Under the pieces are notes generated by a model. The model was not told the DNA's origin. It searched no databases and was given only the letters and a program-made list of their open reading frames with translations. Position numbers and translations under genes: made by a program. This document shows, piece after piece, positions 6,665 to 63,789 of a stretch of 64,000 nt of DNA (within the stretch, counting starts at the first letter, position 1; each line of letters starts with the position of its first letter). Source of the stretch: Dehalococcoidia bacterium (GTDB lineage: Bacteria; Chloroflexota; Dehalococcoidia; UBA2979); the NCBI GenBank assembly GCA_963667465.2, contig CAXXDN010000002.1:864001-928000 (forward strand), written 5' to 3'.

Positions 6665-6809
6665 CGCGGGCGCTCCTTCGCTGCTGCGGGGCGGCTCACG
6701 GCAGGGTATACCGGCGACGCTCGCGTGGTGCGTCGCGCGTTCGGGTGCGGCAGGCTAGCGTACGGCTGCACGGTTGCGCAGCGACGCGCCGAGTCGGCTC
6801 AGGTGGGCG

Positions 6810-9816: not shown

Positions 9817-9924
9817 TCGAGCGACCTCCGGGATGGCTCCAGATCCGAGCTTTGCCGTCAAGATCCAGACGCTGGCGGTCGCGCGTTTGTTCCCGCATCC
9901 GAGGCCAGGCGGGCAGGTCAGTGG

Positions 9925-12396
9925 CTACGGGTACCCCGTGCCCGGCGGGTCGTACTCCGCGGGGTCGAACAGCGGCTCGGAGGTGACGACGCGCTGCTCG
10001 CGCAGGCTCGCGATCTCGGCGGCGTCGTACCCGAACTCGGCGAGGAGGGCGTCGCCGTGCTCGCCGGCCAGCGCGCCGGCGCGGTACGAGCCGGGCGTGC
10101 GGCTCAGCGTCACCTGCGGGCCGTGCCGCCGGTAGTTGCCCCAGAGCGTGTGTTCGGCCTCGAGATCCCAGCCGTTCGCCTCGATCTGCGGGTCGTCGGC
10201 GAAGAACTCGCCGGGCGATCCGCCGTCCGCCTGCACGCAGCCCACGCCGAGCGGCGCGAGCAGCCCCTCCCACTCGAGGGCGGCGCGCTGCGCGAAGAGG
10301 CCGCGCAGCTCCTCGCAGAGCTCCGCGTCGTGCTCCCGGCGCGCCTCGCCCGTCGCGAAGCGGACATCCGAGGCGAGGTCGGAGCGGCCGCTGGCCTCGC
10401 AGAACGTCGCCCACTCGCCGTCCGTAACGACGCCGAGGAAGACCCAGCCCTCGGCGGCCCGGTAGAGGCGGTAGAGCGCGTTCAGGCCGTGCAGATCGGC
10501 GTCGACCGTCGGGCGTGACGCCTTGCCCTCGTAGGAGAGGAAGTCGTCGGAGTTCGCGTAGGCGTTCGCGCCGAGCATGCTCATCGAGACCAGCTGCCCG
10601 ATGCCGAAGCGCTGCTGCGCGTAGAGCCCGAGCAGCATCGCGTTCTGGACCACGGAGCCGGTATTCGGGTCCGGGTTGCCCTCGTTCGCTCGGTAGAGCC
10701 AACGTGCGGCCTCGCTCGCGTCGGGGATCGAGCCGACCGCGGTCGGCGGCATCGCCGCGCCGGCCTGGTAGAGCTGGCCGCCGGTGGCCGCGCCGGGGAT
10801 CGGGTGCGCCGAGGGCCGAGCCGCGCTCGGTCCCTTCGGGCCGTAGCCATTGACCTGCAGGTAGACGATGTCCGGGCGGATCTCACGCACCTGCTCGTAG
10901 CCGATGCCGAGCCGCTCCGGCACGCCGGGCCGGAAATTGTGCATCACCGCGTCCGCCTCCTCGATCAGGCGACGGACGATCGCGCGGCCTTCCTCGCGCT
11001 TGAGGTCGATGCAGATGCTCTCTTTGCCCGCCGAGGTCTTGGCGATGCCGCAGAAGGAGCCGAGCCCGTAGCCCATCCCCCGGTAGGGGTCGCCCTCGGG
11101 CGCCTCGACCTTGATCACGCGCGCGCCGAGGTCCGCGAGGAAGGTGATGCCGAGCGGTGCGGCGATGATCGTGCCGAACTCGATGATCGTGACGCCCTCG
11201 AGGGGTGGGCGGTCGCTGGGGGTGGCGTCGTTGGCAGGCTGCCAGGGTGCGCGCGGCGCCTCGGCGAGCACCTCCTGCGTGTGCTCGCCGGCCTCGGCGA
11301 ACCATTGCGGCGGCTCGCCCGGCGTCTCGCTGAGCTGCGCGATTGGCCCCAGCTGCCGCACGGGACCATGGCGCGGGTGGTCGAAGGCGACGACCTCGCT
11401 GTTTGCCTCGAGGTCGGGGTGGAGCAGGCCTTCCTGTGCCGACTGCACCGGCTCCGAGGCGATCTGGCCGTCCTCCTGGAAGAGCTCCATCCACTCGTCG
11501 AGGCTGCGGTCCTGCATCCGCTCCAGCATGAGGTCGCTCAGCGCGCGCCGTGTTTCCGGGGTGAGTCCCGTCGGTGCGTTCACGAAGCGGGGATCCGCGT
11601 AGATCCCGGAGAGGCCGATCGCGCTGATGTAGGCGTGGAAGTGATGCTCGAGGAGGTTTGCGAGCTGGATCCAGCGCCCGTCGCTGGCGACGACGGGGTG
11701 GTACTGGAGCGTCGGCATCGGCTCGAACTTCGCGTAGGGGTCCCCCTCGAAACCGCGCGGGTAGCGGCGGGCGAGCTGCGTGCGCACGAGGCCGAACAGG
11801 TCGGGCGGGAACATGCCCTGCAGCAGGCTCGTCTCGACGAGCTGGCCCTTGCCGTCGCGGTCGCGCGCGAGCAGCGCCCCGAGGATGCCGTTGACGGCCG
11901 ACTGCGAGGCGGCGTGACTGCCGACCTGCACTGCGGTGTACGCGGGGCCAGCGCGGCGCGGCTGCCCGGCGAACGACTGCATGCGCCCGGACTTGGCCGA
12001 CACGACGCCCTCGTACGGCGCGTAGTTGGCATACGGCCCGCGCGGCCCGAAGGCCGTGATCGAGCAGTAGACGAGACCGGGGTTGTCGATCGAGAGCGTC
12101 TCGTAGTCCGCGCCAAGCTGCTCTGCCTGCCCCGGCCGGTACGAGGCGACGACGACGTCGGCGCCGACGGCGAGTGCGTGCAGTCGCTCGCGCCCGGCCG
12201 CGGTCGTCAGGTCCAGCTCCACGCTGCGCTTGCCGCGCAGCCACATCGGCGAGGCCGGGAGGCGCCGCAGGGGGTCGCCGCCGGGGCGCTCGACCTTGAT
12301 CACGTCGGCGCCGAAATCGGCGAGGACCATCGTGGCGATGCCGCCGGCCGGTCCACTGCTGAGATCGATCACACGCAGGTCTTCGGCGAGCTGCAT
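9925..12396 (-). CDS. Tandem (double-domain) CoA-transferase family III
   Basis: Two CaiB units (VIDLSSGPAGG...GADVIKVERPGGD and IIEFGTIIAAP...GARVIKVEAPEGD). Confidence 0.92.
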   Translation of the reverse strand: MQLAEDLRVIDLSSGPAGGIATMVLADFGADVIKVERPGGDPLRRLPASPMWLRGKRSVELDLTTAAGRERLHALAVGADVVVASYRPGQAEQLGADYETLSIDNPGLVYCSITAFGPRGPYANYAPYEGVVSAKSGRMQSFAGQPRRAGPAYTAVQVGSHAASQSAVNGILGALLARDRDGKGQLVETSLLQGMFPPDLFGLVRTQLARRYPRGFEGDPYAKFEPMPTLQYHPVVASDGRWIQLANLLEHHFHAYISAIGLSGIYADPRFVNAPTGLTPETRRALSDLMLERMQDRSLDEWMELFQEDGQIASEPVQSAQEGLLHPDLEANSEVVAFDHPRHGPVRQLGPIAQLSETPGEPPQWFAEAGEHTQEVLAEAPRAPWQPANDATPSDRPPLEGVTIIEFGTIIAAPLGITFLADLGARVIKVEAPEGDPYRGMGYGLGSFCGIAKTSAGKESICIDLKREEGRAIVRRLIEEADAVMHNFRPGVPERLGIGYEQVREIRPDIVYLQVNGYGPKGPSAARPSAHPIPGAATGGQLYQAGAAMPPTAVGSIPDASEAARWLYRANEGNPDPNTGSVVQNAMLLGLYAQQRFGIGQLVSMSMLGANAYANSDDFLSYEGKASRPTVDADLHGLNALYRLYRAAEGWVFLGVVTDGEWATFCEASGRSDLASDVRFATGEARREHDAELCEELRGLFAQRAALEWEGLLAPLGVGCVQADGGSPGEFFADDPQIEANGWDLEAEHTLWGNYRRHGPQVTLSRTPGSYRAGALAGEHGDALLAEFGYDAAEIASLREQRVVTSEPLFDPAEYDPPGTGYP

Positions 12397-13948: not shown

Positions 13949-14977
13949 CTAGCCTTCTTCGGGCCAGCCGCCCGGGGTTTCGCCGTCGTCCAGCGCACTG
14001 CGGATGGCGTCGGCGGCATCGTCGGTCACCCAGGTGCTCCAGACGGCCTCGTTGCCGTTGAGCCACCAGAGGGCGGCGTCGTTGGCGTCGGCGTTCGGGT
14101 TGTCCTGGAGCCAGGCGGCAACGGTGCTGTACTGACCGATGTCGAAGGTCCAGTTACGCAGGAACGCGACGATGTCCGGGGCGTTGGTCACGACGTCCGG
14201 GTGCGCGGCGATCAGGATCGTCGCGTCCTCGTAGGCGCAGGCCTTGGTCGTGAACCAGCACTCATCGCTGTACTCGGGCTCGGTGAGTCGCACGAGGTCG
14301 AGGACCAGCGCGGGGTCATTGGTGCCCCACTGGTAGCCGAGCCAGGGCTCGCCCTTCTCGTACGCGCCGAGAATGTCGGCATTCGCCGCCGCGCCGTCGC
14401 CGGGGTTGACGACGTGAACGTGGTCGGAGAGACCGTAGCCCTCGATCTGCGCGGCGTTGACTTCCTCACAGGACCAGCCGATCACGCAGGAGACCAGCCG
14501 TGCCTTGCCGCCGCTTTCGGCGGACACGAACAGCTCCTTGAACTGCGGATCCTTGAGGTCCTCGACGCTGTCGAGGTCCGGGTACTGCTCTTGCAGGTAC
14601 GCCGGGATCACGAACGCGGACTGCCAGTCCTTGCCAAGGCTCTGGCCGAGCGAGACAACCTCGCCGTTGGCCTGCGCCTCCGCCCAGGCCTCGTCCTGGT
14701 TCGGGAGCCAGATCTCCATCGTGATGTGCGTGTCGCCGGCCCGCAGGCCCTGGAACAGGGGCAGCGTGGCTCCGAGCACCACGTCGGTCGGGTACTCGTA
14801 GCCCATTTCGACGACGTACTGGGCGATGCGGTTCTGGACCTGTGCGCTGGTCCAGTTCAGGTCGCTGAAGACGAGAGTCTGCTTGTCGCCATCACCATCG
14901 TCCTCGCAGGCCGCCGCGAGCGCGAGGACCAACATCGAGATCATGGTGAGAGCGAACAGCTTGTACCTTGTCAGCAA
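13949..14977 (-). CDS. proX: Glycine betaine/proline ABC transporter substrate-binding lipoprotein
   Basis: Lipobox AAAC; LNWTSA, MEIWLPN, CVIGWSC, WLGYQWG; last gene of a proV-proW-proX order. Confidence 0.85.
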   Translation of the reverse strand: MLTRYKLFALTMISMLVLALAAACEDDGDGDKQTLVFSDLNWTSAQVQNRIAQYVVEMGYEYPTDVVLGATLPLFQGLRAGDTHITMEIWLPNQDEAWAEAQANGEVVSLGQSLGKDWQSAFVIPAYLQEQYPDLDSVEDLKDPQFKELFVSAESGGKARLVSCVIGWSCEEVNAAQIEGYGLSDHVHVVNPGDGAAANADILGAYEKGEPWLGYQWGTNDPALVLDLVRLTEPEYSDECWFTTKACAYEDATILIAAHPDVVTNAPDIVAFLRNWTFDIGQYSTVAAWLQDNPNADANDAALWWLNGNEAVWSTWVTDDAADAIRSALDDGETPGGWPEEG

Positions 14978-15148
14978 ATCCCAACTCCTTTCATCGGGGA
15001 TTCATGCTTGAACGCCTCGGAGCGCGTCACGGCTGGTGGCGCCGACGAACGTACCAGCGACTGATCGCGCCGAAGGCGTCGCCTCCGCAGGTGCGGGGCG
15101 GCTCGCGGGTTTGACTGCGCTGGGGGTTGTTCATCACGGCCGGCCAGG

Positions 15149-16219
15149 TCAGCCGGCGCTCATGCGTCCCTTCTCGCCGGAGCCGATGGATTGTGTCAGA
15201 CGATCGATGATGATGGCGAGGAAGACGATCGCGAGTCCCGCGATCAGCCCGTTCCCCGACTGATTCTTCTGCAGCGCCCGCAGCACGTTGTCGCCGAGCC
15301 CCCCGGCGGCCACCATGCTGGCGATGGTCACCATCGCCAGCGCCATCAGCGTGGTCTGGTTGATGCCCGCCATGATCGTGGGCAGCGCCATCGGGATCTG
15401 GACCTTGGTGAGCACCTGCCACGGCGACGACCCGAACGCGAGCGCCGCCTCCACCACCTCCGGCGAGACCTGGCGGATCCCGAGGTTCGTCAGCCGGATC
15501 ACCGGCGGCACCGCATAGATCACCGTCGCAAAGATGCCGGCCGGCTTGCCGAGACCGAAGAAGAGGATGCCGGGGAGCAGGTAGACGAAGCTGGGCATCG
15601 TCTGCATCGCGTCGAGGATGGGACGCATCACGTTGTCGGCGATGCTGTTGCGTGCGCCGAGCACGCCCAGCGGCAGGCCGATCGCGAGCGAGATCGCTAC
15701 CGCTACCGTGATCAGTGCGATCGTATCGATCGCGTTCTCCCAGAGATCCATGAACCCGATGTAGAGCAGTGCGAGCGCCGTGAAGCCCATCAGGGTCCAG
15801 CGCCCCACCGCGAATGCGAGCAGCGAGAGGCCAACTATGATTACCGGCCACGGAACCCACTTCAGTACGTCCTCGATATTCACCAGCGCGTACGCGATCG
15901 CTTCGCTGATGCCGTCGAACAGCCAGTCGCCCTCGGTGGTCAGCCAATCGACCGCGCGGTCGATTGCATCGCCGGTCTCTCCCCGGATGGTGCTCTCAAG
16001 CGTGACCGTTCTCTCGCCTGCCGGAGTCTCGGACTCCGACAGCGTCGTGGGGAAGCCCATCCCCGGTCCCCAGACAAGCAGGCTCACCACGAGGACCACG
16101 AGCAATGCCCCGACCGCCCCCAGCAGCGGCAATCGGGAGTGGAGCCCTCTGACGAGGCGCCTGGCGGACAGCATGCTGGCGGCGCTTCGCTGCGCCCCCT
16201 CGGCGTCGGTGCCGGCCAT
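15149..16219 (-). CDS. proW: Glycine betaine/proline ABC transporter permease
   Basis: PILDAMQTMPSFVYL, RLTNLGIRQV, EAALAFG (EAA loop), IMAGINQT. Confidence 0.92.
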   Translation of the reverse strand: MAGTDAEGAQRSAASMLSARRLVRGLHSRLPLLGAVGALLVVLVVSLLVWGPGMGFPTTLSESETPAGERTVTLESTIRGETGDAIDRAVDWLTTEGDWLFDGISEAIAYALVNIEDVLKWVPWPVIIVGLSLLAFAVGRWTLMGFTALALLYIGFMDLWENAIDTIALITVAVAISLAIGLPLGVLGARNSIADNVMRPILDAMQTMPSFVYLLPGILFFGLGKPAGIFATVIYAVPPVIRLTNLGIRQVSPEVVEAALAFGSSPWQVLTKVQIPMALPTIMAGINQTTLMALAMVTIASMVAAGGLGDNVLRALQKNQSGNGLIAGLAIVFLAIIIDRLTQSIGSGEKGRMSAG

Positions 16220-52362: not shown

Positions 52363-52696
52363 ATGACAACCAGCGAGCCCGGTAGCGAGCACAGCGGCGC
52401 GAACGTCCTCGTGGGACCGCTCGCCGGCCTCGAGGGTGGCGGGCCCCGCGTCGTCTCGGCCGCTGGACGCACGATCGTCGTCTTCGTCGTGGACGGCGAG
52501 GCGTACGCACTCGATAACCGCTGCCCGCATCTGGGCTTCCCGCTCAGCCAGGGCACCATCCGGCGGGCATATGCTGATTGGCGCGGCCCGCTTCCTGACT
52601 GCGCACTCGCCCACGGCGCGCGCCGCCGAGCAGACGTACGGCACCGCCTCCCGCCTGCACCGTGGTGAGCTGATCTACGAAGAGCCGCTGCCGTAG
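52363..52696 (+). pseudogene. Rieske [2Fe-2S] protein remnant with an internal deletion and frameshift
   Basis: ALDNRCPHLGFPL (first Rieske motif) but no second CxxH; a protein-like C-terminus continues in another frame after about 52560. Confidence 0.7.
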
Positions 52697-52776
52697 CCGG
52701 CGACTCCCGCCGATTCGGCCGCTCACCAGGTGTCGACGGCGGACGGGTCGCGCGGCGCGGGCGCTATCCTCCCGCC

Positions 52777-54123
52777 ATGAGTCGCGAGCCGACCGCGCCC
52801 GTGGACGAAGACGAGCCGCGCTCGAGGGCACTACCCGCCACGAGGCCGCGCCGCGTCTTCTGGGGCTGGTACATCGTTGCCGGCGCGGTCGTCGCGCAGT
52901 TCGCGGCGATGGGCGCCGGTGGCGCCATCGCGGGAGTCTTCCTCCGCCCGATGACCGAGGATCTCGGCTGGACCGCAGCCGAGTACGCCTTCGGCGGTTC
53001 AGCCGCCTTTCTGCTCGCCGGCATCGCCGGCTTCGTGATCGGGCCGTTCATCGATCGCTGCGGCGCTCGGCCGTTGATGCTCGTCGGCGCCTGTGTCTAT
53101 GCGGTCGCGCTCTTCGCCATGTCACGCGTCGAGGAGCTGTGGCAGTTCATCGCGCTCTCGATGATCGTGGGCGGCGCCGGCTTCTCGATGGTCGGGCCGC
53201 TGGTCGTCAATGCGACGCTCTCGAAGTGGTTCGTCGTGCGGCGCGGCTGGGCAATCGCGCTCGGCTCGTCGGGCATCTCCCTCTCGGGGCTGATCATGCC
53301 GCTGACGATGACGTACATCGTCGACTCGGCCGGGTGGCGCGAGGCCTACGCGATCCTCGCGATGGTCATCTTCGTGATCGTCGTACCGGTGGCGTTCGTG
53401 ATGCGCCGCCGCCCGGAGGACTATGGGCTGCTGCCGGACGGCCTCGAGCCCGGCTCGAATGCAGGCGTCGACCGCAGCGCAGCCGAGGCGCAGGAGCGCG
53501 ACGCCGCGAACTCCTACACGCGCGGCGAGGCGCTCCGCACGCCCGCGATCTGGCTGTTGATCGCCGGCTACGGCCTGAACACCATGGCGCTCACGGCGGT
53601 GCTGGTGCACGCCATTCCATTCATGACAGATAACGGCTTCACGCGCACCGAGGCGGCACTGGCGATTGCGGTGAACGGCGGCGCGAACCTCAGCTCGAAG
53701 TTCGTGTGGGGCTACTTCCTGCAGCGAGTGCATGTCCGCAACCTCGGGGCGACGGCGCTGTCGATCTCGGCGACGGGCGTGGTGACCATGCTCGTCGCGG
53801 CGCAGTTGGGCGCGCTGCCACTGATGTTTCTCGGGTTCTTCTTCTGGGGTTTCGGATTCGGCGGGACGGTGCCGCTCAGCGAGTTCATCTGGGCGAAGTA
53901 CTTCGGTCGCGTCCACATCGGGGCGGTGCGAGGCGTCGCGGCGCCGTTCACGATTGCCTTCGGTGCGCTGGGGCCGGTCCTCGGAGGGCTCTACTTCGAC
54001 GCGCTCGGATCGTACGAGGGCGTCTTCGCGGCGTTCGTCGTCGCCTACCTCAGCGGCGCCGTCGCGATCCTCGCCTCACGCGAGCCAGCGCCGAAGCGGG
54101 CGCCGCTCGAGGCCTCCGGCTAG
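52777..54123 (+). CDS. MFS transporter (OFA/MCT-like)
   Basis: 12 TM segments, GPFIDRCGAR motif A, KWFVVRRG, RRPEDYGLLPDG; TATCCT 6 nt before ATG. Confidence 0.92.
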   Translation: MSREPTAPVDEDEPRSRALPATRPRRVFWGWYIVAGAVVAQFAAMGAGGAIAGVFLRPMTEDLGWTAAEYAFGGSAAFLLAGIAGFVIGPFIDRCGARPLMLVGACVYAVALFAMSRVEELWQFIALSMIVGGAGFSMVGPLVVNATLSKWFVVRRGWAIALGSSGISLSGLIMPLTMTYIVDSAGWREAYAILAMVIFVIVVPVAFVMRRRPEDYGLLPDGLEPGSNAGVDRSAAEAQERDAANSYTRGEALRTPAIWLLIAGYGLNTMALTAVLVHAIPFMTDNGFTRTEAALAIAVNGGANLSSKFVWGYFLQRVHVRNLGATALSISATGVVTMLVAAQLGALPLMFLGFFFWGFGFGGTVPLSEFIWAKYFGRVHIGAVRGVAAPFTIAFGALGPVLGGLYFDALGSYEGVFAAFVVAYLSGAVAILASREPAPKRAPLEASG

Positions 54124-54269
54124 CCGCGCAGCGAGGCAGCTGTGGCCCTCTGGACATCCTGGGGGCGGAGTGAACACGGTAGAGATCCAGGATACGAGGG
54201 CCACCCGCTCGTCGCACCCGCAACAGGCGCGCGCGGCTGTATGTGCCGGACCTCCGCGGGTATATAGAG

Positions 54270-54821
54270 CACGTTCGTCGCCATGAGGAAGTTGACGAAC
54301 ATCGGCTTCAGGATCTTGTAGCGGAAGTCGCCCGAAAACCCACCGAGATTCAAAACCGTTCCCATGCTGACATAGTTGAACGGGTTGAGGGCATTCAGCA
54401 ATTTCGACTGCGATCGAGTGAGAGCGCCAAACCAGTGGAGGCGCCTCAGGAGTCGTTGGAACTTCGCAATCTCGGATTGCAGTTCTTCCCTGATTTCAGA
54501 GTCGAAATCGTGGGCATAGATGCGGCCACGGCATTTCACACTGTAGCTGAACCTGGTGTCGATCAGTTCGATACCGAACGCTTCCATCAGCAAGACGATG
54601 TGGTGATAGACGGACGGGATACAGGCGGACGGGATACAGGCGGTGACGGAAATGTCGAAGGGGATCGAACTGCCGTCAACTTGCGGCATGTCGGCAGTGA
54701 TCGCGTTCCCGCCAACCTGGTCCCGGGCCTCGAACAGCCGGAAGTCGAAGCGGTCTGGTTACTGGTGCAGCACCCAGGCTGCGCCGAGGCCGGAACTCCC
54801 CCCGCCGGCAATGGCAATTTA
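54270..54821 (-). pseudogene. FAD/NAD-binding oxidoreductase N-terminal fragment
   Basis: IAIAGGGSSGLGAAW...FEARDQVGGNA Rossmann motif; in-frame TAA at 54819-54821 and 54759-54761; 15-bp duplication (ACIPS x2) at 54611-54643; truncated after NFLMATNV. Confidence 0.75.
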
Positions 54822-55025
54822 CCGCGCCGCTGTCCCCGTCTCGCCGGTTGCCATCGCCCGCCGTCCCGCCAGCGCCGTCCCGCCATCGTCAATCGCCGCG
54901 CGCATGCAGGATACGAGAGTGCCTCGTTCATCGCACGGTCCGGCAGGCACCCGCAGCGAGGTCACCTTGCGGGGCGGAGACCACCTGACCTAGACTAATT
55001 TGAGGGCGGACGGCAAGGAAGCCTG

Positions 55026-57053
55026 ATGACTCTCTCCACGAGCCCGGTCGCGACGAATACTCTCACGCTGCCCGAAGAACTCGTGCTCATGCTGCTCAAC
55101 GAAGAGAGCGGCTACTTTCACCAGGTACCCGGCTGGAGTTTGAACTGCGCCGTCGCCGGTGCTGCGCTTGCCGAACTGTCACTGATTTCTCGTATTGATA
55201 CGGACATGGAGTCCCTGATCATTCTGGATGATACGGAGACGGGTGATCCCGTCCTGGACCTGGTCCTGGAGCAAATCGCAGCCGAGCCGGCCCAGCGGAA
55301 CGCCCAATACTGGGTGGAGCGACTTGCGCCCCGCGCGGAAGCGATCATTGATATGGCGCTCGAGCGGCTGGTTGACCTGAAGATCCTGGAACATCACGAC
55401 GGCGACTTCTGGACGCTGGCCCACACTGCATGGCAGACGGCGATGTTCAGCAGTGACGGAGACGGAACTGCCGCTGAGTTCGTCAGGACTCGTATCAACA
55501 AGGTCATCTTCAGCAACGAGATTCCCGCGCCCCGGGACATCATCATTGTCGCCCTTATTGATACGTGCGATGTATTCCGCTTCATGTTCCACCTTGAGGA
55601 GGAATCAGAGGAGCGTATCGAGCTCATCTGCAGGATGGATTTGATTGCCCGCGCCATCGCGGAAGCGGTCACTCAGAACATCAACGTTCCGCTACTGGGA
55701 CGCGCCGGGCTGACCAAGACGATACCGACTGTCCCGCTGCGCAAGTTCGTGCTCCATCGGCATCTCCGCGATGGCAACCTGCCTGCGCTGTTTGCGGATC
55801 TCGCGGAGCAATACGGCCCGGTGTACAAGCTCAATCCGCCGTTCCAGCAGCCGATGATCATTCTGGCGGGGCCCGAAACGAACTACTGGGTGCACCGCCA
55901 GGGGCGCATGTACCTGAGGGCCCGGGACTATCTCCAGGACTTCGAGAAGATCTACGGCGCATCCGGGATCCTGCCCGCGCTGGATGGCGCCGATCACTTC
56001 CGGTTCCGCAAGTCGCTGGCGTCGGGCTATTCGCGCGCGAGACTTGAAGGGCAACTGGAGGATCTCCACAACCACACCCGGTCACACATGGCGACCTGGG
56101 AGGTTGGAGACACCATCCCCGCAGTGACGATGTGCCGACAGTTGATCAACGCCCAGATCTCGCCCCTGATGATCAGCGTCGATTCGCAGGATGTCCTGGA
56201 CGATCTGGTCAAGTACAAGACACGTGCCCTGTCCACGCATGTTTTGGGTGTCATGCCCAAGTTCATGCTCAAGACCCCGGGAATGCGGCGCCGAGCGAGG
56301 AGCATCCAGGTGCTGCTGGAGCGCGTCCAGAGCGTCCACACGGCCGCCCAACGGGCGGGCTGCCCTCGCGATCTCGCGGACGACCTGCTCAGCCTGCACT
56401 CGAGCGACCCGTCGTTCCTCCCGGAGTCGAACCTGCGCTTCGCCCTCTCGGCGCCGCTGATTGCCAGCGTTTACCTCGGCGATGGGCTGAGCTTCGCGCT
56501 CTACTCGATGGCGTCGCAGCCCGAGCTCTACGCCAGGATCAGGGAGGAAGCCGACGCCCTGTTCGATGGCGGCGATCCGGGACGCGAGGACTTCACCGAA
56601 GAGTCGGTGGATGTCACGCGCCGCTTCATCATGGAGTCCATGCGGATGCACTCGATCGTTCCGATGTCCGTCCGGAACATGATGAACACGTGCGTGGTCG
56701 AGGGCTACGAGATTCCCGAGGGGGCGCGAATCTTCATCGCACAGACAGCGTCGCACTACATGAGCGACGTCTTCCCGGAGCCGTGGTCATTCGACATCGA
56801 CCGCTATCTGCCCGATCGCAACGAGCACCTCAGTCCGGGCTACGCTCCGTTCGGGCTGGGTACGCACACGTGCCTCGGGAACAGGTGGATGGAGTTGCAG
56901 CTGGCCGTCAACCTGCTGCTGCTGGCCCACCACTTCACGATCGAGGTGTCACCCGCGAACTACAAGCTCAAGATCGACCCGTTCCCGTCGCTCTCGGTGA
57001 GCAAGAAGCTGAAGTTCCACATCGCCGAGCAGCGGCGCGAGTTCCCCGCCTGA
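55026..57053 (+). CDS. GPP34/GOLPH3-like domain fused to cytochrome P450
   Basis: N-terminal LTLPEELVLMLL...AGAALAEL...TGDPVLD (GPP34-like); C-terminal ESMR (ExxR), FDIDRY and FGLGTHTCLG heme-Cys motif. Confidence 0.85.
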   Translation: MTLSTSPVATNTLTLPEELVLMLLNEESGYFHQVPGWSLNCAVAGAALAELSLISRIDTDMESLIILDDTETGDPVLDLVLEQIAAEPAQRNAQYWVERLAPRAEAIIDMALERLVDLKILEHHDGDFWTLAHTAWQTAMFSSDGDGTAAEFVRTRINKVIFSNEIPAPRDIIIVALIDTCDVFRFMFHLEEESEERIELICRMDLIARAIAEAVTQNINVPLLGRAGLTKTIPTVPLRKFVLHRHLRDGNLPALFADLAEQYGPVYKLNPPFQQPMIILAGPETNYWVHRQGRMYLRARDYLQDFEKIYGASGILPALDGADHFRFRKSLASGYSRARLEGQLEDLHNHTRSHMATWEVGDTIPAVTMCRQLINAQISPLMISVDSQDVLDDLVKYKTRALSTHVLGVMPKFMLKTPGMRRRARSIQVLLERVQSVHTAAQRAGCPRDLADDLLSLHSSDPSFLPESNLRFALSAPLIASVYLGDGLSFALYSMASQPELYARIREEADALFDGGDPGREDFTEESVDVTRRFIMESMRMHSIVPMSVRNMMNTCVVEGYEIPEGARIFIAQTASHYMSDVFPEPWSFDIDRYLPDRNEHLSPGYAPFGLGTHTCLGNRWMELQLAVNLLLLAHHFTIEVSPANYKLKIDPFPSLSVSKKLKFHIAEQRREFPA

Positions 57054-57095
57054 CCCGCGTGACCCGCCTGACCCGCCTGAACCGTCTGAACCGCC
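57045..57095. repeat. Degenerate 9-bp tandem repeat CCCGCCTGA x5.6 starting at the P450 stop codon
   Basis: CCCGCCTGA CCCGCGTGA CCCGCCTGA CCCGCCTGA ACCGTCTGA ACCGCC. Confidence 0.88.
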
Positions 57096-57191
57096 GGAGC
57101 CATTGAGGCCGCCTGATGGGCCTCCTCGCGTTCGACCGCGCGAGACGATGATGGGCGCGGCCGCCGGCCCGCACGCCCCGGGCGATCGCGC

Positions 57192-58220
57192 CTACAGGGG
57201 CTTACGAGCGAGGAAGCAGTAGAGCGGGGTGAATATCCCCGTCTTGCCGCCCGCGACGTAGGCGTCCGCCGTGCGATCGAGGAGGCGGACGACTTCCGCG
57301 GAGCCTTTCGGGAACAGCCGCACCACCTCGGCCAGCCTCGCGCCCGCGATCATCGCCTTGCGACCCCACGGCAGCCTGCGCAAGGCCCCCCCAGCGCCCG
57401 TGCGGCGCTCCATCGGTTGATACCAGGGGATGGACGTCCCTTCTTCGGACGCCCTGTCCAGCCCTTCGATGACCTCGAATCCCACCGCTTCGAGCGCGCG
57501 GTTCACTTCCCCGAACGTCGCGATGTCGTTCAGCGCGATACCGTGCATGAGCTCCTGCTTGATGGCCGGATGGCGGAGGTCGTTCGGATCGAACGTGTCC
57601 GTCAGGCACATTTCCTGGCCCCAGAACAGGGCTCCGGGCTTCAGCACACGGAAGATCTCCGCGAACGCGCCTTGCTTGTCCGGGGCATGGCATGTCGACT
57701 CGATGGCATAACCGCAGTCGAACGTGTCGTCTTCGAAGGCGCTCATATCCATGAAGCTGCACGCCTTGTAATCGAGCAGGTGGCCGATCCCGCTCTCGGC
57801 GCTGCGCCTTCGCGCCATCTCCAACTGGACCTCGTTGATGTTGATGCCGACGACGTGCACGCCGGCCTCACGGGCGACGCGGCGCATCGGGCCGCCGACG
57901 CCACAGCCGACATCGATCGCCGTCATGCCCTCCTGCATCTCGAGCTTGGAGATCATCAACCGCTGGTGCCGGACCTGGCTTTCCTCGAGGCTCTCATGGG
58001 GCGCGAGGGGCGCGAAGTGCAGGGATTCGCTCCAGCCCCAGACCATGAACCCGCTGCTTAGGTCGTAGTAGTCCTTCACCGTCTGGGTGTGGTCGTACCG
58101 CGCGGAATCAGCATCGCGCGCCGCCCGCTCGCTCCAGCCGCCAAAATCTCGCACGCGACGCGAGACATCCGAGCCCCGGTACGCATCCCGCAACTCTCTT
58201 GACAGGTTGCGGAGCTGCAT
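57192..58220 (-). CDS. Sterol C24-methyltransferase (ERG6/SMT-like)
   Basis: Region I YYDL...WGWSESLHFAP, II DVGCGVGGP, III YAIESTCHAP, IV IFRVLKPG, and C-terminal GGKTGIFTPLYCFLARKP. Confidence 0.9.
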   Translation of the reverse strand: MQLRNLSRELRDAYRGSDVSRRVRDFGGWSERAARDADSARYDHTQTVKDYYDLSSGFMVWGWSESLHFAPLAPHESLEESQVRHQRLMISKLEMQEGMTAIDVGCGVGGPMRRVAREAGVHVVGININEVQLEMARRRSAESGIGHLLDYKACSFMDMSAFEDDTFDCGYAIESTCHAPDKQGAFAEIFRVLKPGALFWGQEMCLTDTFDPNDLRHPAIKQELMHGIALNDIATFGEVNRALEAVGFEVIEGLDRASEEGTSIPWYQPMERRTGAGGALRRLPWGRKAMIAGARLAEVVRLFPKGSAEVVRLLDRTADAYVAGGKTGIFTPLYCFLARKPL

Positions 58221-58463
58221 CACGGGGCCAACTCCAACCCTTGGCCGAAGGTTCCTGGGCGCGGTCGAGTGGCCTGACCGGACATCAAGAGCCGCCGTCC
58301 GTTCATCACAACCGCCCGCCGACGTGGAGATCGTGCACGCCAACCCGCGCCTGCGACCACGGCGAGGCCCAGAATGCTGTCACCAAGTGTACGCCCGTGG
58401 GGTAAGGGCTCGCACCACGAAGCGCGGTAGCCGGGCGGCTCGTGCGTTGCCGGGAATGCGCGG

Positions 58464-60947
58464 CTACGGTGCTCCCGGCTCCTGCTCGTGGCGCCGGTGC
58501 ACCGCCTCGATCGCCAGGTCCAGCTCCTCCGTCATGCGGTCCACCATCGAGCGAAGCCGCATGTTCTGGTACGCGCCCCAGACCGTCATGGCGGGCGGCA
58601 CCACGAGGATGGAAACGATCAGCGAGTAGGCAATCGTGATCGCCGCGGTGAGGCCGAACTGCTGGGACGCAAGGAGCGGCGAGGCCACCAGCACTCCAAG
58701 CCCGAGCGCCGTCGTCAGCGCAGAGCCGAGCAGTGCCGATCCGGTAGTCGCGAGTGTCCGGATCGCCGCCTGCTCCGGGTTGCGCACGCGGGTGAATTCC
58801 TCGCGGTAGCGATGGATCAGGTGGATCGTGTAGTCCACCCCGATGCCGATGGAGAGCGCCGTGATGATCGAGGTGACCAGGGTGTAGGGAATGTCCAGCA
58901 GCGCCATCGTGCCAAGCACCCAGATGAGGACGAGCACGATCGGCCCCACCGCGATCACCGCCAGCAGTGGTTGGCGCTGCGTCACCCAGAAAAAGACGGC
59001 GAGGATCCCGAGGGCTACCGCGATGGTCGTGCTGATCGCCTGGGTCTGCCGGCCCGTGATCTCGTCGGTGACCGCGACCGCAACGATGTCGAGCGAGGTC
59101 GCCGTCACTGCGCCGTCGTCGCCGAACCAGAGGGCCTCGATATCCTCCTGCAGCGCCCTCGTGACCGCGGGATCGCCGGAGTAGGCCGGGAACTGGACCA
59201 GCAGCGCGTCGACGCCCTCCGGATCGTTCACGAGCGAGCGCACGAGGGTGGGATCTCGCGCGCTGAGCTTGTCGAGGAGCTCCTGCATGATGACCGGGTC
59301 GAGTTGCACCCCGGCGGTGGCTTGCTCGAAGAGCGCCGCGAGCTCCGGGTCGTACTTGTCACCGGGCGCGCCGCTGTCCTCGGTCCAGTCGTTGACGAGC
59401 AATTCGTAGGAGACCTGGATCGGTCCCGCGGCCGCCGGCGGGCGACGTGTCTCGTCTTCGAAGGCGGTCCTGAGATCATGCAAGTTCAGCAGGGTCCGGG
59501 TCTCGGTCGCCTCGGCGGTGACGAGCACGCTCGCCATCTCCGTCGAGCCACCGACGGTTGCGTCGAGGGTTTCCATATCCTTGAGCACGGCACCGCCACG
59601 GGGGAGGATCTCGCGGATGTTGAATCCGGATTCGAGTCCCGTCGCCGCGTACCCGAGCCCGATCGTCACCGCAATCACGACGATGAAGTAGGGCGCCGGC
59701 GTGCGCGCAACCGACGTACCGAGCAGCTCTGCCAGCCGTCCGATGCCGGGCAGGGCGTTCGCGACCGGGCGAGGCTGCGTCAACGTGCCGCGAGACTCGC
59801 GCCGCCGGTCGATGATCATCCGGCCGGCCGGGATCAGCGTCAGCATCACGATCAAGCTCAGGCCCACGCCCAGCCCCGCAACGATGCCAAAGTCGCCCAT
59901 CACGCCGATCGGGGAGAGCAGGTTGACGAGCAGGCTCGCGATCGTCGTGACGGCGGCCAGGGTCAGCGGGACGGTGACGTGTTGCAGTCCGATCCGCACC
60001 GCCGCCAGGACCGGCTCGCCCTCGGCGCGCTGCTCGCGGTAGTGCGAGACGCCCTGGATCGCGTAGTCCACGGTGAGGCTGATCACGATGATCGGCACCA
60101 GCGCGGTGAGCGAGCTCGGTGGGCCGATCAGCCCCAGCGCGTTCGGTCCGAGCCAGCCCTCTGCCCCGATCACCCAGATCAATGAGAGCAGCAGCCCGAG
60201 CAGTGTGAGCAGCAGATCCGAGAGCGTGCGAAGGAAGACCAGGATCAGCGCCGCGATCAGCAGCAGCGCCAGTCCGATCAGGGGCGCCATCCCTTCCTCG
60301 GTGGCTTTGCGGTACTCATCCTCGACCACGATCGGTGAGACGCTGCTCACGCGCAGTGGGCCCTCGTCCGCTATCGCCAGCTCGTTGATCCGCCGTTCAG
60401 CCTCCTTCACCCGCTCGTCCCCGGTGTTGATCAGGCGGATGGTGGCGATCGCGACCGGCGTACCGTCCGTATCGCTTCCGGTCATCGCAGCGAGCCCCTC
60501 GCCGATCTCGGGGACGCCGCGGACAGCGTCGATCTCGGCCTGCGTGACCGCACCGAAGCCATCCACCTGGAGCACGGCGCTGATCAGCAGCGTGGGCGCG
60601 GTGACCGGGTTTCCGTGCGCCAGCAGCTCCCCCACGCCGGGATCGCCGGTGATGCGACCGATCAGGCCGTCCATCTGCGAAAGCCCCTCGGGAGTCAGCG
60701 CCTCCCCGCGAAAGATCAGCGTGACGACGCCGACATCGCTCGACTCCCCGAAGTGCTTGTCGATCCCCTCGATCGCGTTGGCGACGGCGTTCCCGGGCGG
60801 AAGGAAGGCCAGGGCAGCGCCCTCCACCACCGGCGCGCGCCGCCCCGCACCCGCGGCCAGCACGACGGTGACGATCAAGAGCACGAGGATCGTGAGGTAC
60901 GGGCGCGCCGTGACCAGCCAGCTCAGCCTGGCGAGAACTCTACTCAT
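58464..60947 (-). CDS. MMPL/RND-superfamily transporter
   Basis: Two repeats of 1+5 TM with large extracytoplasmic loops; SLTVDYAIQ and GIGVDYTIH motifs. Confidence 0.9.
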   Translation of the reverse strand: MSRVLARLSWLVTARPYLTILVLLIVTVVLAAGAGRRAPVVEGAALAFLPPGNAVANAIEGIDKHFGESSDVGVVTLIFRGEALTPEGLSQMDGLIGRITGDPGVGELLAHGNPVTAPTLLISAVLQVDGFGAVTQAEIDAVRGVPEIGEGLAAMTGSDTDGTPVAIATIRLINTGDERVKEAERRINELAIADEGPLRVSSVSPIVVEDEYRKATEEGMAPLIGLALLLIAALILVFLRTLSDLLLTLLGLLLSLIWVIGAEGWLGPNALGLIGPPSSLTALVPIIVISLTVDYAIQGVSHYREQRAEGEPVLAAVRIGLQHVTVPLTLAAVTTIASLLVNLLSPIGVMGDFGIVAGLGVGLSLIVMLTLIPAGRMIIDRRRESRGTLTQPRPVANALPGIGRLAELLGTSVARTPAPYFIVVIAVTIGLGYAATGLESGFNIREILPRGGAVLKDMETLDATVGGSTEMASVLVTAEATETRTLLNLHDLRTAFEDETRRPPAAAGPIQVSYELLVNDWTEDSGAPGDKYDPELAALFEQATAGVQLDPVIMQELLDKLSARDPTLVRSLVNDPEGVDALLVQFPAYSGDPAVTRALQEDIEALWFGDDGAVTATSLDIVAVAVTDEITGRQTQAISTTIAVALGILAVFFWVTQRQPLLAVIAVGPIVLVLIWVLGTMALLDIPYTLVTSIITALSIGIGVDYTIHLIHRYREEFTRVRNPEQAAIRTLATTGSALLGSALTTALGLGVLVASPLLASQQFGLTAAITIAYSLIVSILVVPPAMTVWGAYQNMRLRSMVDRMTEELDLAIEAVHRRHEQEPGAP

Positions 60948-61015
60948 GGCGCGCCCTTCTCCCGGAGCATCCCACGCCTAAGGCGCTGGCGCACCGCGCG
61001 GGCGTCTCGACGCGA

Positions 61016-61708
61016 CTACAGAATCCCGAGGCGAATCGCCGTGACGACGGCATCCAGCTTGGTCGTCGCGTTGAGCTTCCCGCGGAAGTGGCGGACGTGG
61101 TTGCGCACCGTGTGCGGGCTGATGCTCAACGCCTCGGCGATCCGCTGCGTGCCCCAGCCCGCCGCTACCAGGCGCAGGACTTCCACCTCTCGCGCGGTGA
61201 GCCGTCCCAGCTCAGGCGACGGCGAGACCCTCACCGGCTGGTCGGACAGGATGTCGGCACCCTGCTCGAGCAACTCGCTGCGCAGCGAGTCGGCCGCCCG
61301 CTCGGACCCTGCCTCCTCGGCAGGCTCGGCGAACAGGTGAACCAGGAACGGGGCGTCCTCGCCCGGGGCCGCGATGACCATCGGAGTGAGCGAGACGGAC
61401 TTGCGTTCGCCGGACTCGCAGAGCATCAGCATCGTGCATGCACGCGGGATCTCGCCGCCTCGCAAGGTACGGAGCGACGGGCAACCGAGCAGGCACTCGG
61501 GCGTGAAGCCCCCGGGCGTCAACCCGGTCACCACCTCGTAGCAGCGGCGGCCGATCACCTGGCCGCGCGAAAAGCCGAGAATCCGTTCCGCAGCCTGATT
61601 CCAGGACACAATGGTCTGATCGATTGACATTACGTAGGCGCCGAACGGCGCCGTTGCGAGGAACTGAACGACGGCATCCAATCTCACAGGGCCCTCATCC
61701 TTACTCAA
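61016..61708 (-). CDS. PAS-domain LuxR-family transcriptional regulator
   Basis: IVSWNQAAERILGFS..QVIGRRC (PAS); LTAREVEVLRLVAAG...ISPHTVRNHV (LuxR HTH). Confidence 0.92.
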   Translation of the reverse strand: MSKDEGPVRLDAVVQFLATAPFGAYVMSIDQTIVSWNQAAERILGFSRGQVIGRRCYEVVTGLTPGGFTPECLLGCPSLRTLRGGEIPRACTMLMLCESGERKSVSLTPMVIAAPGEDAPFLVHLFAEPAEEAGSERAADSLRSELLEQGADILSDQPVRVSPSPELGRLTAREVEVLRLVAAGWGTQRIAEALSISPHTVRNHVRHFRGKLNATTKLDAVVTAIRLGIL

Positions 61709-62128
61709 GCATCGACCATTAGGGGTACGTCTACAGTTTGCCGTTTACCCTCGTTCAATGGCCTCGTTTTTCTTCCCGCGAACATACCACCAATGCGGCA
61801 CGGACAAGTCAAGCATCCAGCGTTGCGCGTGATCCATAACACTTTCGTGCCATGCCAACCCTTTACGAGTGCCGCTCACTCTCGAATCGGTGCTGCCAGA
61901 TGCTGCACCGCCTCTCCGAGACTATACGCGCTCATACGCGTTTATGCGGAATCCCGCCCGCGTTATGCCCGCATGCGCAGCGCGGCGCCATCACACGGCC
62001 GACGCCACATGCGCGGTGGCTGCCGCACGGGATCCGCGCGTTACGTGCTTTGACATCGCGGACGGAAGCGCACACGATCCGGGCGCTCGTCGGCAACAGG
62101 ACGGGCGCGGAGCGGAAGGGGCGCCCCA

Positions 62129-63310
62129 ATGCGAGGCACCTCGGCGATCGTCGGCATCGGCGAATCGACCTACTACCGGCCGGGCGGCTCCCCGGACAGC
62201 GAACTGCAGCTCGCGGTCACGGCGATCACCAATGCCGCCGCCGACGCGGGCATCGACGTCGAGGAGATCGACGGCTTCGTCTCGTACGGCAACGACCGAA
62301 GCACGCCCTCGAAGCTCTCGACGGTGCTCGGCGTCAACGAGACGAAGTTCGCCGCACTGTCGTGGGATGGTGGCGGCAACAACGTCGCCGGCACGCTCGC
62401 CATCGCGGACGCGGCGGTCACCGCGGGCTACGCCGACTACGTGGTCTGCTACCGCAGCCTCGCCCAGGGCGAGTACGGGCGCTTCGGGCAGGCGCGGGTC
62501 ACGGGCCGCGTGCGCGTGCCCGAGGAGGGCGCGTTCCGGGTCCCCTACGGCGTGATGGTCCCGGCCCACTGGTACGCGATGATCGCGCAGCGCTTCATGT
62601 ACGAGCACGGCATCACCGAGCACGCCCTCGCCGAAATCTCGCTCGCCGCCTACGCGCACGCGCAGCGCAATCCTCGCGCGATCCGCCACGGCCGCGAGCT
62701 GACGAAGGACGACTACCTCAACTCGCGCTGGATCGTCGAGCCGTTCCGGCTCTTCGACTGCTGCCAGGAGAACGACTGCTCCGCCGCCGTGATCGTGACC
62801 AGCGCCGAGCGCGCACGCGAGCTCGACAAGCAGCCGGTCTACATCCGCTCCGCCGCGCAGGGCATCGACTACCGCGGCGCGGCCGGCGGCGCAGTCGGCG
62901 CGGGCTACAACGACCCCGACTTCCCGACGGCGCACTACAAGAACATCGCCGACATGATCTGGTCCCGCGCGGGCGTCGGCCCCAAGGACGTCCAGGTCGC
63001 GCAGTTCTACGAGAACTTCACCGGCCTCGCGCTGATGGCGATCTCCGAGATGGGCTTCTCGCCACCCGAGGAGATCGAGGACTGGGTGCGCGCCGGCAAC
63101 CTGCGCTGGCCGGACGGCGAGCTGCCGATCAACACCAGCGGCGGCAACCTCGCCGAGGCCTACGTCCACGGCTTCGAGCTTGTCAACGAGGCGGCCCGCC
63201 AGGTCCGCGGCGAGTCCACCTGCCAGGTCGACAATGTCGAGTTCAGCCTCGTTGTCGCGGGACCGGGAGCGCTGCCGGCGAGCGCCGCGCTGCTCTCGGT
63301 CGAGCCGTAG
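62129..63310 (+). CDS. SCP-x-type thiolase-like / lipid-transfer protein (Ltp-like)
   Basis: AIVGIGES, HAQRNPRA, FDCCQEND, QFYENF, INTSGGNLAEAYVHG. Confidence 0.88.
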   Translation: MRGTSAIVGIGESTYYRPGGSPDSELQLAVTAITNAAADAGIDVEEIDGFVSYGNDRSTPSKLSTVLGVNETKFAALSWDGGGNNVAGTLAIADAAVTAGYADYVVCYRSLAQGEYGRFGQARVTGRVRVPEEGAFRVPYGVMVPAHWYAMIAQRFMYEHGITEHALAEISLAAYAHAQRNPRAIRHGRELTKDDYLNSRWIVEPFRLFDCCQENDCSAAVIVTSAERARELDKQPVYIRSAAQGIDYRGAAGGAVGAGYNDPDFPTAHYKNIADMIWSRAGVGPKDVQVAQFYENFTGLALMAISEMGFSPPEEIEDWVRAGNLRWPDGELPINTSGGNLAEAYVHGFELVNEAARQVRGESTCQVDNVEFSLVVAGPGALPASAALLSVEP

Positions 63311-63366
63311 CCGACGCCGCGAGCGCCGCATTCCGGGCCCCGCGCGGGCCCTGCGAGGAGAGCACC

Positions 63367-63789
63367 ATGACCCGATTCATGCCCGAAGACTGGCCCATTC
63401 CCGAGCTTGACCGCTTCAACCGCGACTTCTTCACCGCGGGCAAGCTCGTCGTGCAGCAGTGCGTGGCCTGCGGGACGGTCCAGCACCCGCCGGACGCCGC
63501 CTGCAACGCTTGCAGGGCGATGGACTTTCGCTCGCTGGAGACGAACGGTGAGGGGACGGTCTACTCGTACATCGTCGTCCACAACCCGCCCGCGCCCGCG
63601 CTGGCCGAGGCCGTGCCGTACGCCGTCGCGCTCGTCAGCCTCGACGAGCATCCGCACGTCCGCATCCTCGGCAACGTGCTCAACTGCGAGCCCGGCGAGG
63701 TAGCGATCGGCCAGAAGGTGCGCGCCGTCTTCGAGGAGATCGTCGACGAGGACGAGACACTGCTCGTACCGCAGTGGGAGCGCGTCTAA
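63367..63789 (+). CDS. DUF35 Zn-ribbon/OB-fold protein (thiolase partner)
   Basis: QQCVACG..HPP..ACNAC, GTVYSY, PYAVALVSLDE, IGQKVRAVFE. Confidence 0.9.
   Translation: MTRFMPEDWPIPELDRFNRDFFTAGKLVVQQCVACGTVQHPPDAACNACRAMDFRSLETNGEGTVYSYIVVHNPPAPALAEAVPYAVALVSLDEHPHVRILGNVLNCEPGEVAIGQKVRAVFEEIVDEDETLLVPQWERV

Follow-up and report, generated by a model that had tools for sequence, protein, structure and literature searches.

A partly eroded GPP34-P450, methyltransferase and transporter cassette with a probable role in sterol or triterpenoid tailoring in a sponge-associated Dehalococcoidia bacterium

The DNA analysed here is a 64,000-nucleotide stretch of contig CAXXDN010000002.1 from a Dehalococcoidia bacterium (the window). 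Between 54.2 and 61 kb it carries a gene cluster built around a fusion of a GPP34 domain to a cytochrome P450. Beside the fusion lie genes for a sterol methyltransferase (SMT)-family protein and an MMPL/RND transporter, together with the remains of a gene for a flavin adenine dinucleotide (FAD) enzyme. Domains of the open reading frames (ORFs) were assigned by Pfam, and the remnant was delimited by tblastn and blastn.

55026-57053, + strand: GPP34-cytochrome P450 fusion ('GPP34_L'), 675 residues, intact; GPP34 at residues 15-216 (108 bits), p450 at residues 247-660 (134 bits)
~57192-58220 (ORF to 58343), - strand: SMT-family methyltransferase, 342 residues; Methyltransf_11 70.9 bits, Sterol_MT_C 62.7 bits (cut-off 21.7)
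58464-60947, - strand: MMPL/RND (HAE3-like) transporter, 827 residues; MMPL 136.6 bits in two stretches, Sterol-sensing 43.4, Patched sterol-sensing domain 37.4
54175-54830, - strand: pseudogene remnant of a FAD amine-oxidase-like enzyme, with 83 bases left from the intergenic spacer that once separated the Rieske and FAD genes

Together with a PAS-LuxR regulator gene described below, the three intact genes agree in coordinates, strands and domains with the four ORFs that an earlier note on this DNA had set out, as the ORF list and Pfam confirm. The SMT gene is placed at ~57192-58220 because its homologues (342-344 residues, 75-91% identity) begin at a methionine 41 codons into the ORF. The difference in base composition from the flanks that the note had reported is real and uneven, with GC contents of 0.60-0.63 over 54000-56500 (the FAD-gene remnant and P450), 0.66-0.69 over the SMT and MMPL genes and ~0.70 in the flanks. 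NCBIfam offered no equivalog for the SMT, P450, MMPL or FAD enzyme. Scans of 54000-62000 were uninformative, yielding one promoter-like site against 0.9 expected and one terminator-like site against 3.0 expected, and no RNA runs were among those listed as carrying the stretch. Sequencing runs labelled 'sponge metagenome' contain 70-99% of the stretch's sampled words, in keeping with the symbiotic setting that the note had envisaged.

Searched against species-representative genomes, the fusion protein returned 502 relatives, from which the best 80 loci were kept with 10-kb flanks (64 from Chloroflexota and 16 from other phyla; 14/80 end less than 5 kb from the P450). These loci derive from metagenome-assembled genomes (MAGs) of Dehalococcoidia/Chloroflexota, Nitrospirales, Latescibacterota, Binatia, Opitutales and Rhodothermaceae, and the fusion orthologues in them are full length at 66-88% identity. 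Several genes recur around the fusion. Among Chloroflexota and other phyla, respectively, a Rieske/KshA_C partner is found in 58/64 and 11/16 loci, an SMT partner in 52/64 and 5/16, and a FAD enzyme partner in 41/64 and 8/16. The MMPL gene adjoins the P450 and SMT genes in 56/64 Chloroflexota loci and is a partner in 0/16 loci from other phyla. All four partners (Rieske, MMPL, SMT and FAD enzyme) occur in 30 of the 53 Chloroflexota loci that have at least 5 kb on both sides. The synteny of P450, SMT and MMPL in most of the 64 Chloroflexota loci is far beyond chance, and it upholds the conserved neighbourhood of these three genes proposed in the note. The co-occurrence across MAGs that the note had suggested checking holds in this phylum and fails for the MMPL gene outside it. 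The note's four-gene unit needs revision, as the real cassette has two more enzymes, Rieske and FAD, both lost here; the broken FAD gene and the Rieske deletion had gone unnoticed.

In other loci the Rieske gene encodes a 357-residue Rieske + KshA_C oxygenase and adjoins the gene for a 452-residue Amino_oxidase/NAD_binding_8 flavoprotein. The closest solved structures to the Rieske enzyme are KshA steroid hydroxylases, and a Protein Atlas query with this protein gave only generic Rieske/KshA_C clusters. For the flavoprotein, the closest solved relative is LkcE (108 bits). The Nitrospirales loci L047, L065 and L102 display a variation on this arrangement, in which an outer-membrane beta-barrel gene (OMP_b-brl, ~14290-15350) fills the slot of the Chloroflexota MMPL gene between the Rieske and FAD genes.

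Evidence for loss of these two genes from the window comes from several comparisons. When window proteins are compared with the loci by tblastn, the short ORF at 54120-54689 (- strand), which lies upstream of the P450, shows conservation that exceeds the P450's own, and it corresponds to the N-terminal third of the 452-residue flavoprotein. A full-length flavoprotein query (L042:7507-8865, 452 residues) matches only through residues 19-187, at 77% identity to window 54255-54776 by tblastn, and direct reading reveals a Rossmann GxGxxG stretch upstream of the remnant, cut off by an in-frame stop. The Rieske protein has no tblastn match anywhere in the host genome, and the KshA_C domain has no match in the whole genome. 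Because blastn to the sister genome L046 splits into three blocks (window 52562-54164 = 5647-7239, 54175-54257 = 8353-8435 and 54254-57200 = 9260-12147), two deletions can be placed, with junctions at ~54164/54175 and ~54254-54257. Lost with them were the Rieske gene and, from the flavoprotein gene, its C-terminal 60%. One contig from run X2 spans 53697-54299 with zero differences, and another from run X8, representing a ~97%-identical strain from another coded organism, spans 52503-54306 with 50 differences. Since these contigs bridge the junctions, the deleted arrangement is no assembly artefact, and related strains share it.

The remaining genes have pairwise ratios of nonsynonymous to synonymous substitution (dN/dS) of 0.11-0.16 for the P450 and ~0.2 for the SMT, within a P450/SMT/MMPL range of 0.11-0.23 that resembles the flanking transporter and regulator genes. 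These pairwise values, which are blind to recent relaxation, indicate purifying selection on the P450, SMT and MMPL. The P450 has a dS of 0.41 relative to the sister genome, compared with 0.06-0.16 for its neighbours, and the SMT shares 97% identity with its sister-genome counterpart and 71-78% with those of other close relatives, where the SMT is inverted. These values mark the locus as a recombination mosaic, in line with the shift in base composition. On a wider scale, a quick maximum-likelihood tree of 84 fusion proteins nests five non-Chloroflexota groups inside Chloroflexota (internal branches 0.01-0.05), with the Nitrospirales fusions as one clade at a Shimodaira-Hasegawa-like approximate likelihood ratio test (SH-aLRT) value of 100. 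Fusion identity between phyla is 66-69%, well above expectation from vertical descent. Taken together, the P450 tree and cross-phylum identity point to horizontal transfer among phyla, which agrees with the steroid-gene transfer described in the main text of Kelly et al. 2022 (PMC9531527).

The sterol link rests on the context of related loci. Next to the cassette, the Nitrospirales loci L047, L065 and L102 also carry a second SMT, an SdmB-like short-chain dehydrogenase/reductase (SDR; 293 bits, NF052578), an SdmA-like Rieske protein (407 bits, NF052579) and an ERG4/ERG24 gene (245 bits). Just beyond, in Nitrospirales genome G061, lie a squalene epoxidase (SE)-oxidosqualene cyclase (OSC) fusion of 1269 residues and a 204-bit CYP51-like P450, the latter between the cyclase and ERG4/24. 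Across the 80 loci, the second SMT (SMT2) is present in 1/64 from Chloroflexota and 6/16 from other phyla, and ERG4/ERG24 and Rieske/VanA_C genes are each present in 0/64 and 6/16. Moreover, one co-oriented block in the genus-mate G016 (L119, G016:C4 7706-15864) comprises genes for an MMPL protein, a GPP34-P450, a squalene epoxidase and a 646-residue cyclase; this GPP34-P450 is 55% and this MMPL 61% identical to the window's, and G016 has no CYP51-like P450 at ≥190 bits. With SE, OSC, CYP51-like P450, ERG4/24 and SdmA/B-like genes in related loci, the sterol connection suggested by the note is strengthened. For MAGs of Ircinia symbionts, the main text of Kelly et al. 2022 (PMC9531527) describes ERG24-CYP51-LSS clusters of steroid genes with a flanking SMT, and reports both purifying selection and horizontal transfer. 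The ecological setting and phyla are the same, and the Nitrospirales loci carry that core beside the cassette. The window, in contrast, has 0/3 of the core genes, and the cassette is a separate tailoring/transport module that also occurs alone.

The host genome (2.97 Mb, 2 contigs, 93.6% complete) has no match to squalene epoxidase and none to SQHop_cyclase_C, and therefore any sterol substrate would have to come from outside. The absence of both enzymes from the window, remarked on in the note, holds genome-wide and supports the external source, host or diet, proposed there. A separate SMT search covered 61 related genomes. Among 14 searched genomes that have a cassette-type SMT, a cyclase match was obtained in G016, G056 and G058 and in none of the other 11. 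The host genome also encodes an ERG4/ERG24 homologue (G000:C2:1138093-1139154, L116 9091-10230; 114 bits, cut-off 27; 0/14 control genomes match), which is flanked by three SDRs and two major facilitator superfamily (MFS) transporters and may mark a second sterol-handling locus. Steroid catabolism was considered separately and set aside, as the host genome has no KshA_C match.

The methyltransferase has both parts expected of an SMT, a class I S-adenosylmethionine (SAM)-dependent methyltransferase domain and Sterol_MT_C, and retains Region II (DxGxGxxGP, here DVGCGVGGP), Glu195 of Region III (YAIESTCHAP), Gly217 of Region IV (LKPG), W286 (PWYQP) and the C-terminal GGKTGIFTP. The bacterial and sponge-symbiont sterol C-24 methyltransferases described in the main texts of Brown et al. 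2023 (PMC10070321) and the Brown & Welander 2025 preprint share with it Methyltransf_11 + Sterol_MT_C, Regions II-IV, W286 and C-terminal G352/F357/P359. The cassette SMT differs from them in its cyclase-less genomes and in its position beside P450 and MMPL genes rather than sdmAB or erg genes. It also differs at position 249, which is Ile rather than Gly (yeast residue numbering, transferred by our own alignment). According to the main text of the same preprint, G249I mutants retained only C28 production. Because of this residue, the window's SMT, if it acts on Delta24 sterols, is predicted to carry out a single methylation.

In the P450 half of the fusion, the heme-thiolate motif FxxGxxxCxG and the ExxR pair appear as FGLGTHTCLG and E-S-M-R, and both are kept in at least 95% of 82 orthologues. 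An AlphaFold2 model of the fusion (predicted local distance difference test score, pLDDT, 75) has as its top Foldseek match the lanosterol-bound Methylococcus capsulatus CYP51 (TMt 0.81, 21% identity), a sterol 14-alpha-demethylase that is among the best sequence and fold matches to solved structures. The idea that the fusion P450 replaces CYP51 was rejected, given the separate CYP51-like P450 between OSC and ERG4/24 in G061 and a differing I-helix. The fusion has the same two-domain architecture and length class as the published GPP34_L form, is likewise sponge-associated and shares symbiont phyla with it, among them Dehalococcoidia, Nitrospirota and Latescibacterota (PMC11706023, Microbiome 2025, main text). 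In that main text, flanking genes are examined for the short form alone, and there is no mention of a sterol link or of methyltransferase, Rieske, FAD-enzyme or MMPL neighbours.

Related arrangements occur elsewhere. The host genome has a GPP34-only gene (G000:C2:1174938-1178660, L118) with a separate P450 in a 454-residue frame ~2 kb downstream; the main text of PMC11706023 describes this combination of a short GPP34 form and a nearby P450 in other sponge symbionts. In addition, a second, deeply divergent GPP34-P450 subfamily, 28-29% identical and with an I-helix that differs again, is found at L032 499-5101 and L085 4993-6996. The partner of the L032 fusion is another MMPL (71% identity to that of the window), and the L085 fusion lies near an SMT2-type gene.

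The transporter's best NCBIfam match is HAE3 TIGR00921, at 183 against a cut-off of 351.9. Like the lipid RND exporters HpnN, BstA and MmpL, it has the MMPL fold with two repeats and similarity to sterol-sensing domains, and it is clustered with enzymes for its presumed cargo. It differs from HpnN and BstA in its Chloroflexota host, in scores far under their cut-offs and in that no BstB- or BstC-like partners were seen. Additional paralogues are present in the host genome. One, at G000:C2:1100969-1103438, is 63-74% identical to the window's MMPL and may be frameshifted, as the match falls into two pieces that overlap at the junction; several more are at ~50% identity.

Our preferred reading, of moderate confidence, is that window 54.2-61 kb represents a five-gene cassette of sponge-associated bacteria that has spread horizontally, is partly eroded in this copy and most likely tailors and moves sterols or closely related cyclic triterpenoids. 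When complete, the cassette comprises the GPP34-P450, the SMT, a KshA-like Rieske oxygenase and an amine-oxidase-like FAD enzyme that is probably a desaturase or isomerase, plus the MMPL/RND transporter in Chloroflexota. Under the proposed order of steps, the oxygenases and flavoenzyme would act on the nucleus or the side chain of the sterol. The SMT would transfer a methyl group from SAM onto a double bond of the side chain, and removal of the hydrophobic substrate or product from the cytoplasmic membrane would fall to the MMPL protein. The GPP34 domain may replace the membrane anchor of eukaryote-type P450s and would probably dock the enzyme to a lipid surface. In the host bacterium the substrate would be supplied by the sponge host, its diet or neighbouring symbionts, and only the P450, SMT and MMPL steps would be left.

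A more specific version, which is rather doubtful, casts the cassette as a mobile sterol side-chain 'workshop' of sponge symbionts. Bacteria that make no sterols would take up those of the host or community, and the flavoenzyme, Rieske enzyme and unusual P450 would desaturate or oxygenate the side chain. The SMT, with its variant Region I, would alkylate at a position or on a substrate unused by canonical SMTs, and the RND pump would return the product, with GPP34 as a docking module and not a secreted effector. If this were true, the unconventional sterols found in demosponges, and sterane biomarkers as well, would be partly of bacterial origin.

Several observations weigh against the assignment to sterol tailoring, the most direct of them in the SMT. 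Its Region I reads GWSESLHF rather than GWGxxFHF. The main text of the Brown & Welander 2025 preprint lists 25 residues, including 84-GWGxxFHF-91, as conserved in all SMTs that alkylate desmosterol or 24-methylenecholesterol; the window SMT keeps 22 of these 25 and departs at T78S, G86S and F89L. The deviation belongs to the clade, as cassette SMTs share the pattern F-M-V-[FWY]-G-W-[GS]-E-S-L-H-F, compared with ..Y/F-E-Y/F-G-W-G-x-x-F-H-F in functional SMTs; Met81 and Leu89 are found in 57/57 and Ser86 in 20/57. The SMT2 paralogues of biosynthetic clusters, by comparison, have F/Y81 and Phe89 in 8/8. The cassette SMT may fail on desmosterol or 24-methylenecholesterol, or may take another substrate.

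The P450 raises similar doubts. Where an acid-alcohol pair (A/G-G-x-D/E-T-T/S) is expected in the I-helix, the fusion has A-S-V-Y-L-G-D, aligned with A-G-H-H-T-S in CYP51 and A-S-Y-D-T-T in CYP725A4, and Y-L-G-D is kept in at least 95% of the 82 fusion orthologues. These residues suggest that the P450 may perform chemistry other than ordinary hydroxylation. Resemblance to CYP51 amounts to 76 bits and 21% identity, with A-S-V-Y-L-G in place of A-G-x-H-T-S, and P450 BM3, CYP184A1 and CYP97C1 score nearly as well in Foldseek. The MMPL protein scores only 90 against the HpnN cut-off of 751.85 (TIGR03480) and 42.3 against the BstA cut-off of 1400 (NF045600), and the cassette includes no gene for a ferredoxin or reductase as redox partner. 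The 80 loci represent the closest relatives and, being kin, are not independent, so that their counts describe a pattern and carry no statistical test. Finally, the cassette is dispensable: two genes were lost here, and the genus-mates G004, G011, G014 and G017 have truncated, split or frameshifted P450s and no SMT. Two further genus-mates, G006 and G015, have neither P450 fusion nor SMT.

The host genome also supplies a candidate substrate of its own, again to the detriment of the sterol reading. Two SQS_PSY genes in tandem and the amine-oxidase gene that comes after them (G000:C2:1860025-1863412, L117 7025-10412) form an HpnC/HpnD/HpnE-like triad, so squalene is a possible endogenous alternative. 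The cassette might then act on an acyclic isoprenoid such as squalene, which the SMT-like enzyme would methylate, the FAD, Rieske and P450 enzymes would desaturate or oxygenate, and the MMPL protein would export to the envelope. Botryococcus has SMT-like methyltransferases for squalene and botryococcene, the host genome has no cyclase or epoxidase to use squalene, and the sterol-binding motif of Region I is altered clade-wide. Furthermore, the FAD enzyme, with its weak N-terminal NCBIfam matches, belongs to an amine-oxidase superfamily that also holds HpnE and phytoene desaturases. We nevertheless regard this alternative as unlikely. The Nitrospirales cassette lies within a full sterol cluster, downstream of SE-OSC, and the paralogous pair in G016 abuts SE and OSC. 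The Rieske enzyme is KshA-like, the MMPL protein has sterol-sensing matches and the host keeps an ERG4/ERG24 homologue. An endogenous housekeeping lipid would also leave unexplained the restriction of the fusion to sponge symbionts reported in the main text of PMC11706023.

Two other rivals concern what the genes do at present. The surviving genes could be a non-functional relic, three leftovers that have been decaying since the Rieske and FAD genes were lost; the two deletions and the broken or missing genes of the six genus-mates accord with this. A relic is nonetheless quite unlikely, as the P450, SMT and MMPL proteins are full length with all tested motifs recorded as present, their dN/dS values are like those of flanking genes, and the ~97%-identical strain retains the same deleted arrangement. 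Still less probable is that the fusion acts as a secreted effector that binds host phosphatidylinositol 4-phosphate (PI4P) and blocks phagosome maturation, its neighbours being functionally unrelated. This anti-phagocytosis role is proposed in the main text of PMC11706023, which finds the fusion only in sponge symbionts, reports an enrichment of GPP34 in such symbionts from 16 further phyla, and notes that eukaryotic GOLPH3 binds PI4P. The flank analysis in that text covers the short form alone, whereas the fusion is syntenic here with four lipid-handling genes in several phyla, and also with sterol biosynthesis genes. On direct reading, its N-terminus, MTLSTSPVATNTLTLPEE..., contains no hydrophobic signal-peptide core, and a heme P450 needs a redox partner. 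The PI4P pocket of human GOLPH3 consists of Trp81, Arg90, Arg171 and Arg174. Pairwise alignment of the window's GPP34 domain with GOLPH3 is weak (E 0.07, second half unaligned); within it, Trp37, nearly invariant among fusions, aligns with the Trp of 'SFWND', which suits an effector, and an Ala aligns with the Arg of 'GLRGC', which we take to be a PI4P ligand and which does not suit one. The enzymatic neighbourhood, the signal-less N-terminus and the Ala at the GOLPH3-Arg position favour an intracellular membrane-associated enzyme.

The cassette is flanked in the window by genes with a more local distribution:

61016-61708, - strand: PAS-LuxR (GerE) regulator, a lineage-specific, non-core neighbour; PAS 30.6, GerE/LuxR helix-turn-helix 58
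52777-54123, + strand: MFS transporter, upstream flank; Pfam MFS_1
62129-63310, + strand: thiolase-like gene; Thiolase_C_1
~63379-63789, + strand: DUF35 OB-fold/zinc-ribbon gene; OB_ChsH2_C + zf-ChsH2

The regulator gene lies 68 bases upstream of the MMPL gene on the same strand, and it is found there only in this sublineage (3/80 loci; 3/64 Chloroflexota and 0/16 other phyla), a distribution that removes it from the module in which the note had included it. Its PAS part has four Cys residues (C-x15-C-x3-C-x20-C) that are invariant in four orthologues. By comparison with Cys-ligated PAS sensors, this pattern is presumably that of a redox/oxygen or metal (Fe-S) cofactor sensor rather than a sterol pocket, which suggests that the protein is a redox or oxygen sensor. 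It is at most a local regulator gained by this lineage. Only the closest relatives have the MFS gene next to the cassette (orthologues of at least 50% identity in 3/64 Chloroflexota and 0/16 other phyla). Genes further upstream are unrelated (riboflavin synthesis, luciferase-like monooxygenase, SDR and Na/H exchanger).

Downstream, a 645-residue 'ChsH2-like' ORF (61852-63789) was considered as a cassette-linked steroid side-chain gene and rejected as a high-GC frame artefact over the thiolase-like and DUF35 genes. Thiolase_C_1 is in another frame than this ORF, and OB_ChsH2_C and zf-ChsH2 are only in its last 136 codons. The thiolase-like/DUF35 pair is beside the cassette in 3/80 loci (DUF35 ORF in 3/64 Chloroflexota and 0/16 other phyla), and the host genome has more than a dozen DUF35 paralogues.

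The note's statement that no such gene combination had been described was too strong as to its parts. The fusion appears in PMC11706023, and bacterial or symbiont SMTs in PMC10070321 and PMC9531527, to go by their main texts. For the cassette itself, its cyclase-less occurrence, the Region-I-variant SMT clade and the atypical P450 I-helix, no description was found in literature searches or in the main texts of the papers cited here.

If the sterol-tailoring reading is correct, it would give the GPP34-P450 fusion a testable lipid- or sterol-tailoring context that competes with the published effector hypothesis. The sterol-binding Region I of this SMT clade differs from that of every SMT shown to be active, which bears on predicting side-chain alkylation and the sources of 24-alkyl steranes from sequence. 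The cassette has eroded repeatedly in a single genus, which shows that such symbiosis modules are dispensable. Genes of the SMT-family, P450, sterol-reductase-like and RND kinds are present even in symbionts without squalene epoxidase and cyclase. On this reading, the remodelling of sponge sterols could be a trait of the community, and modifiers of this sort would be overlooked when "sterol-producing" bacteria are counted by OSC.

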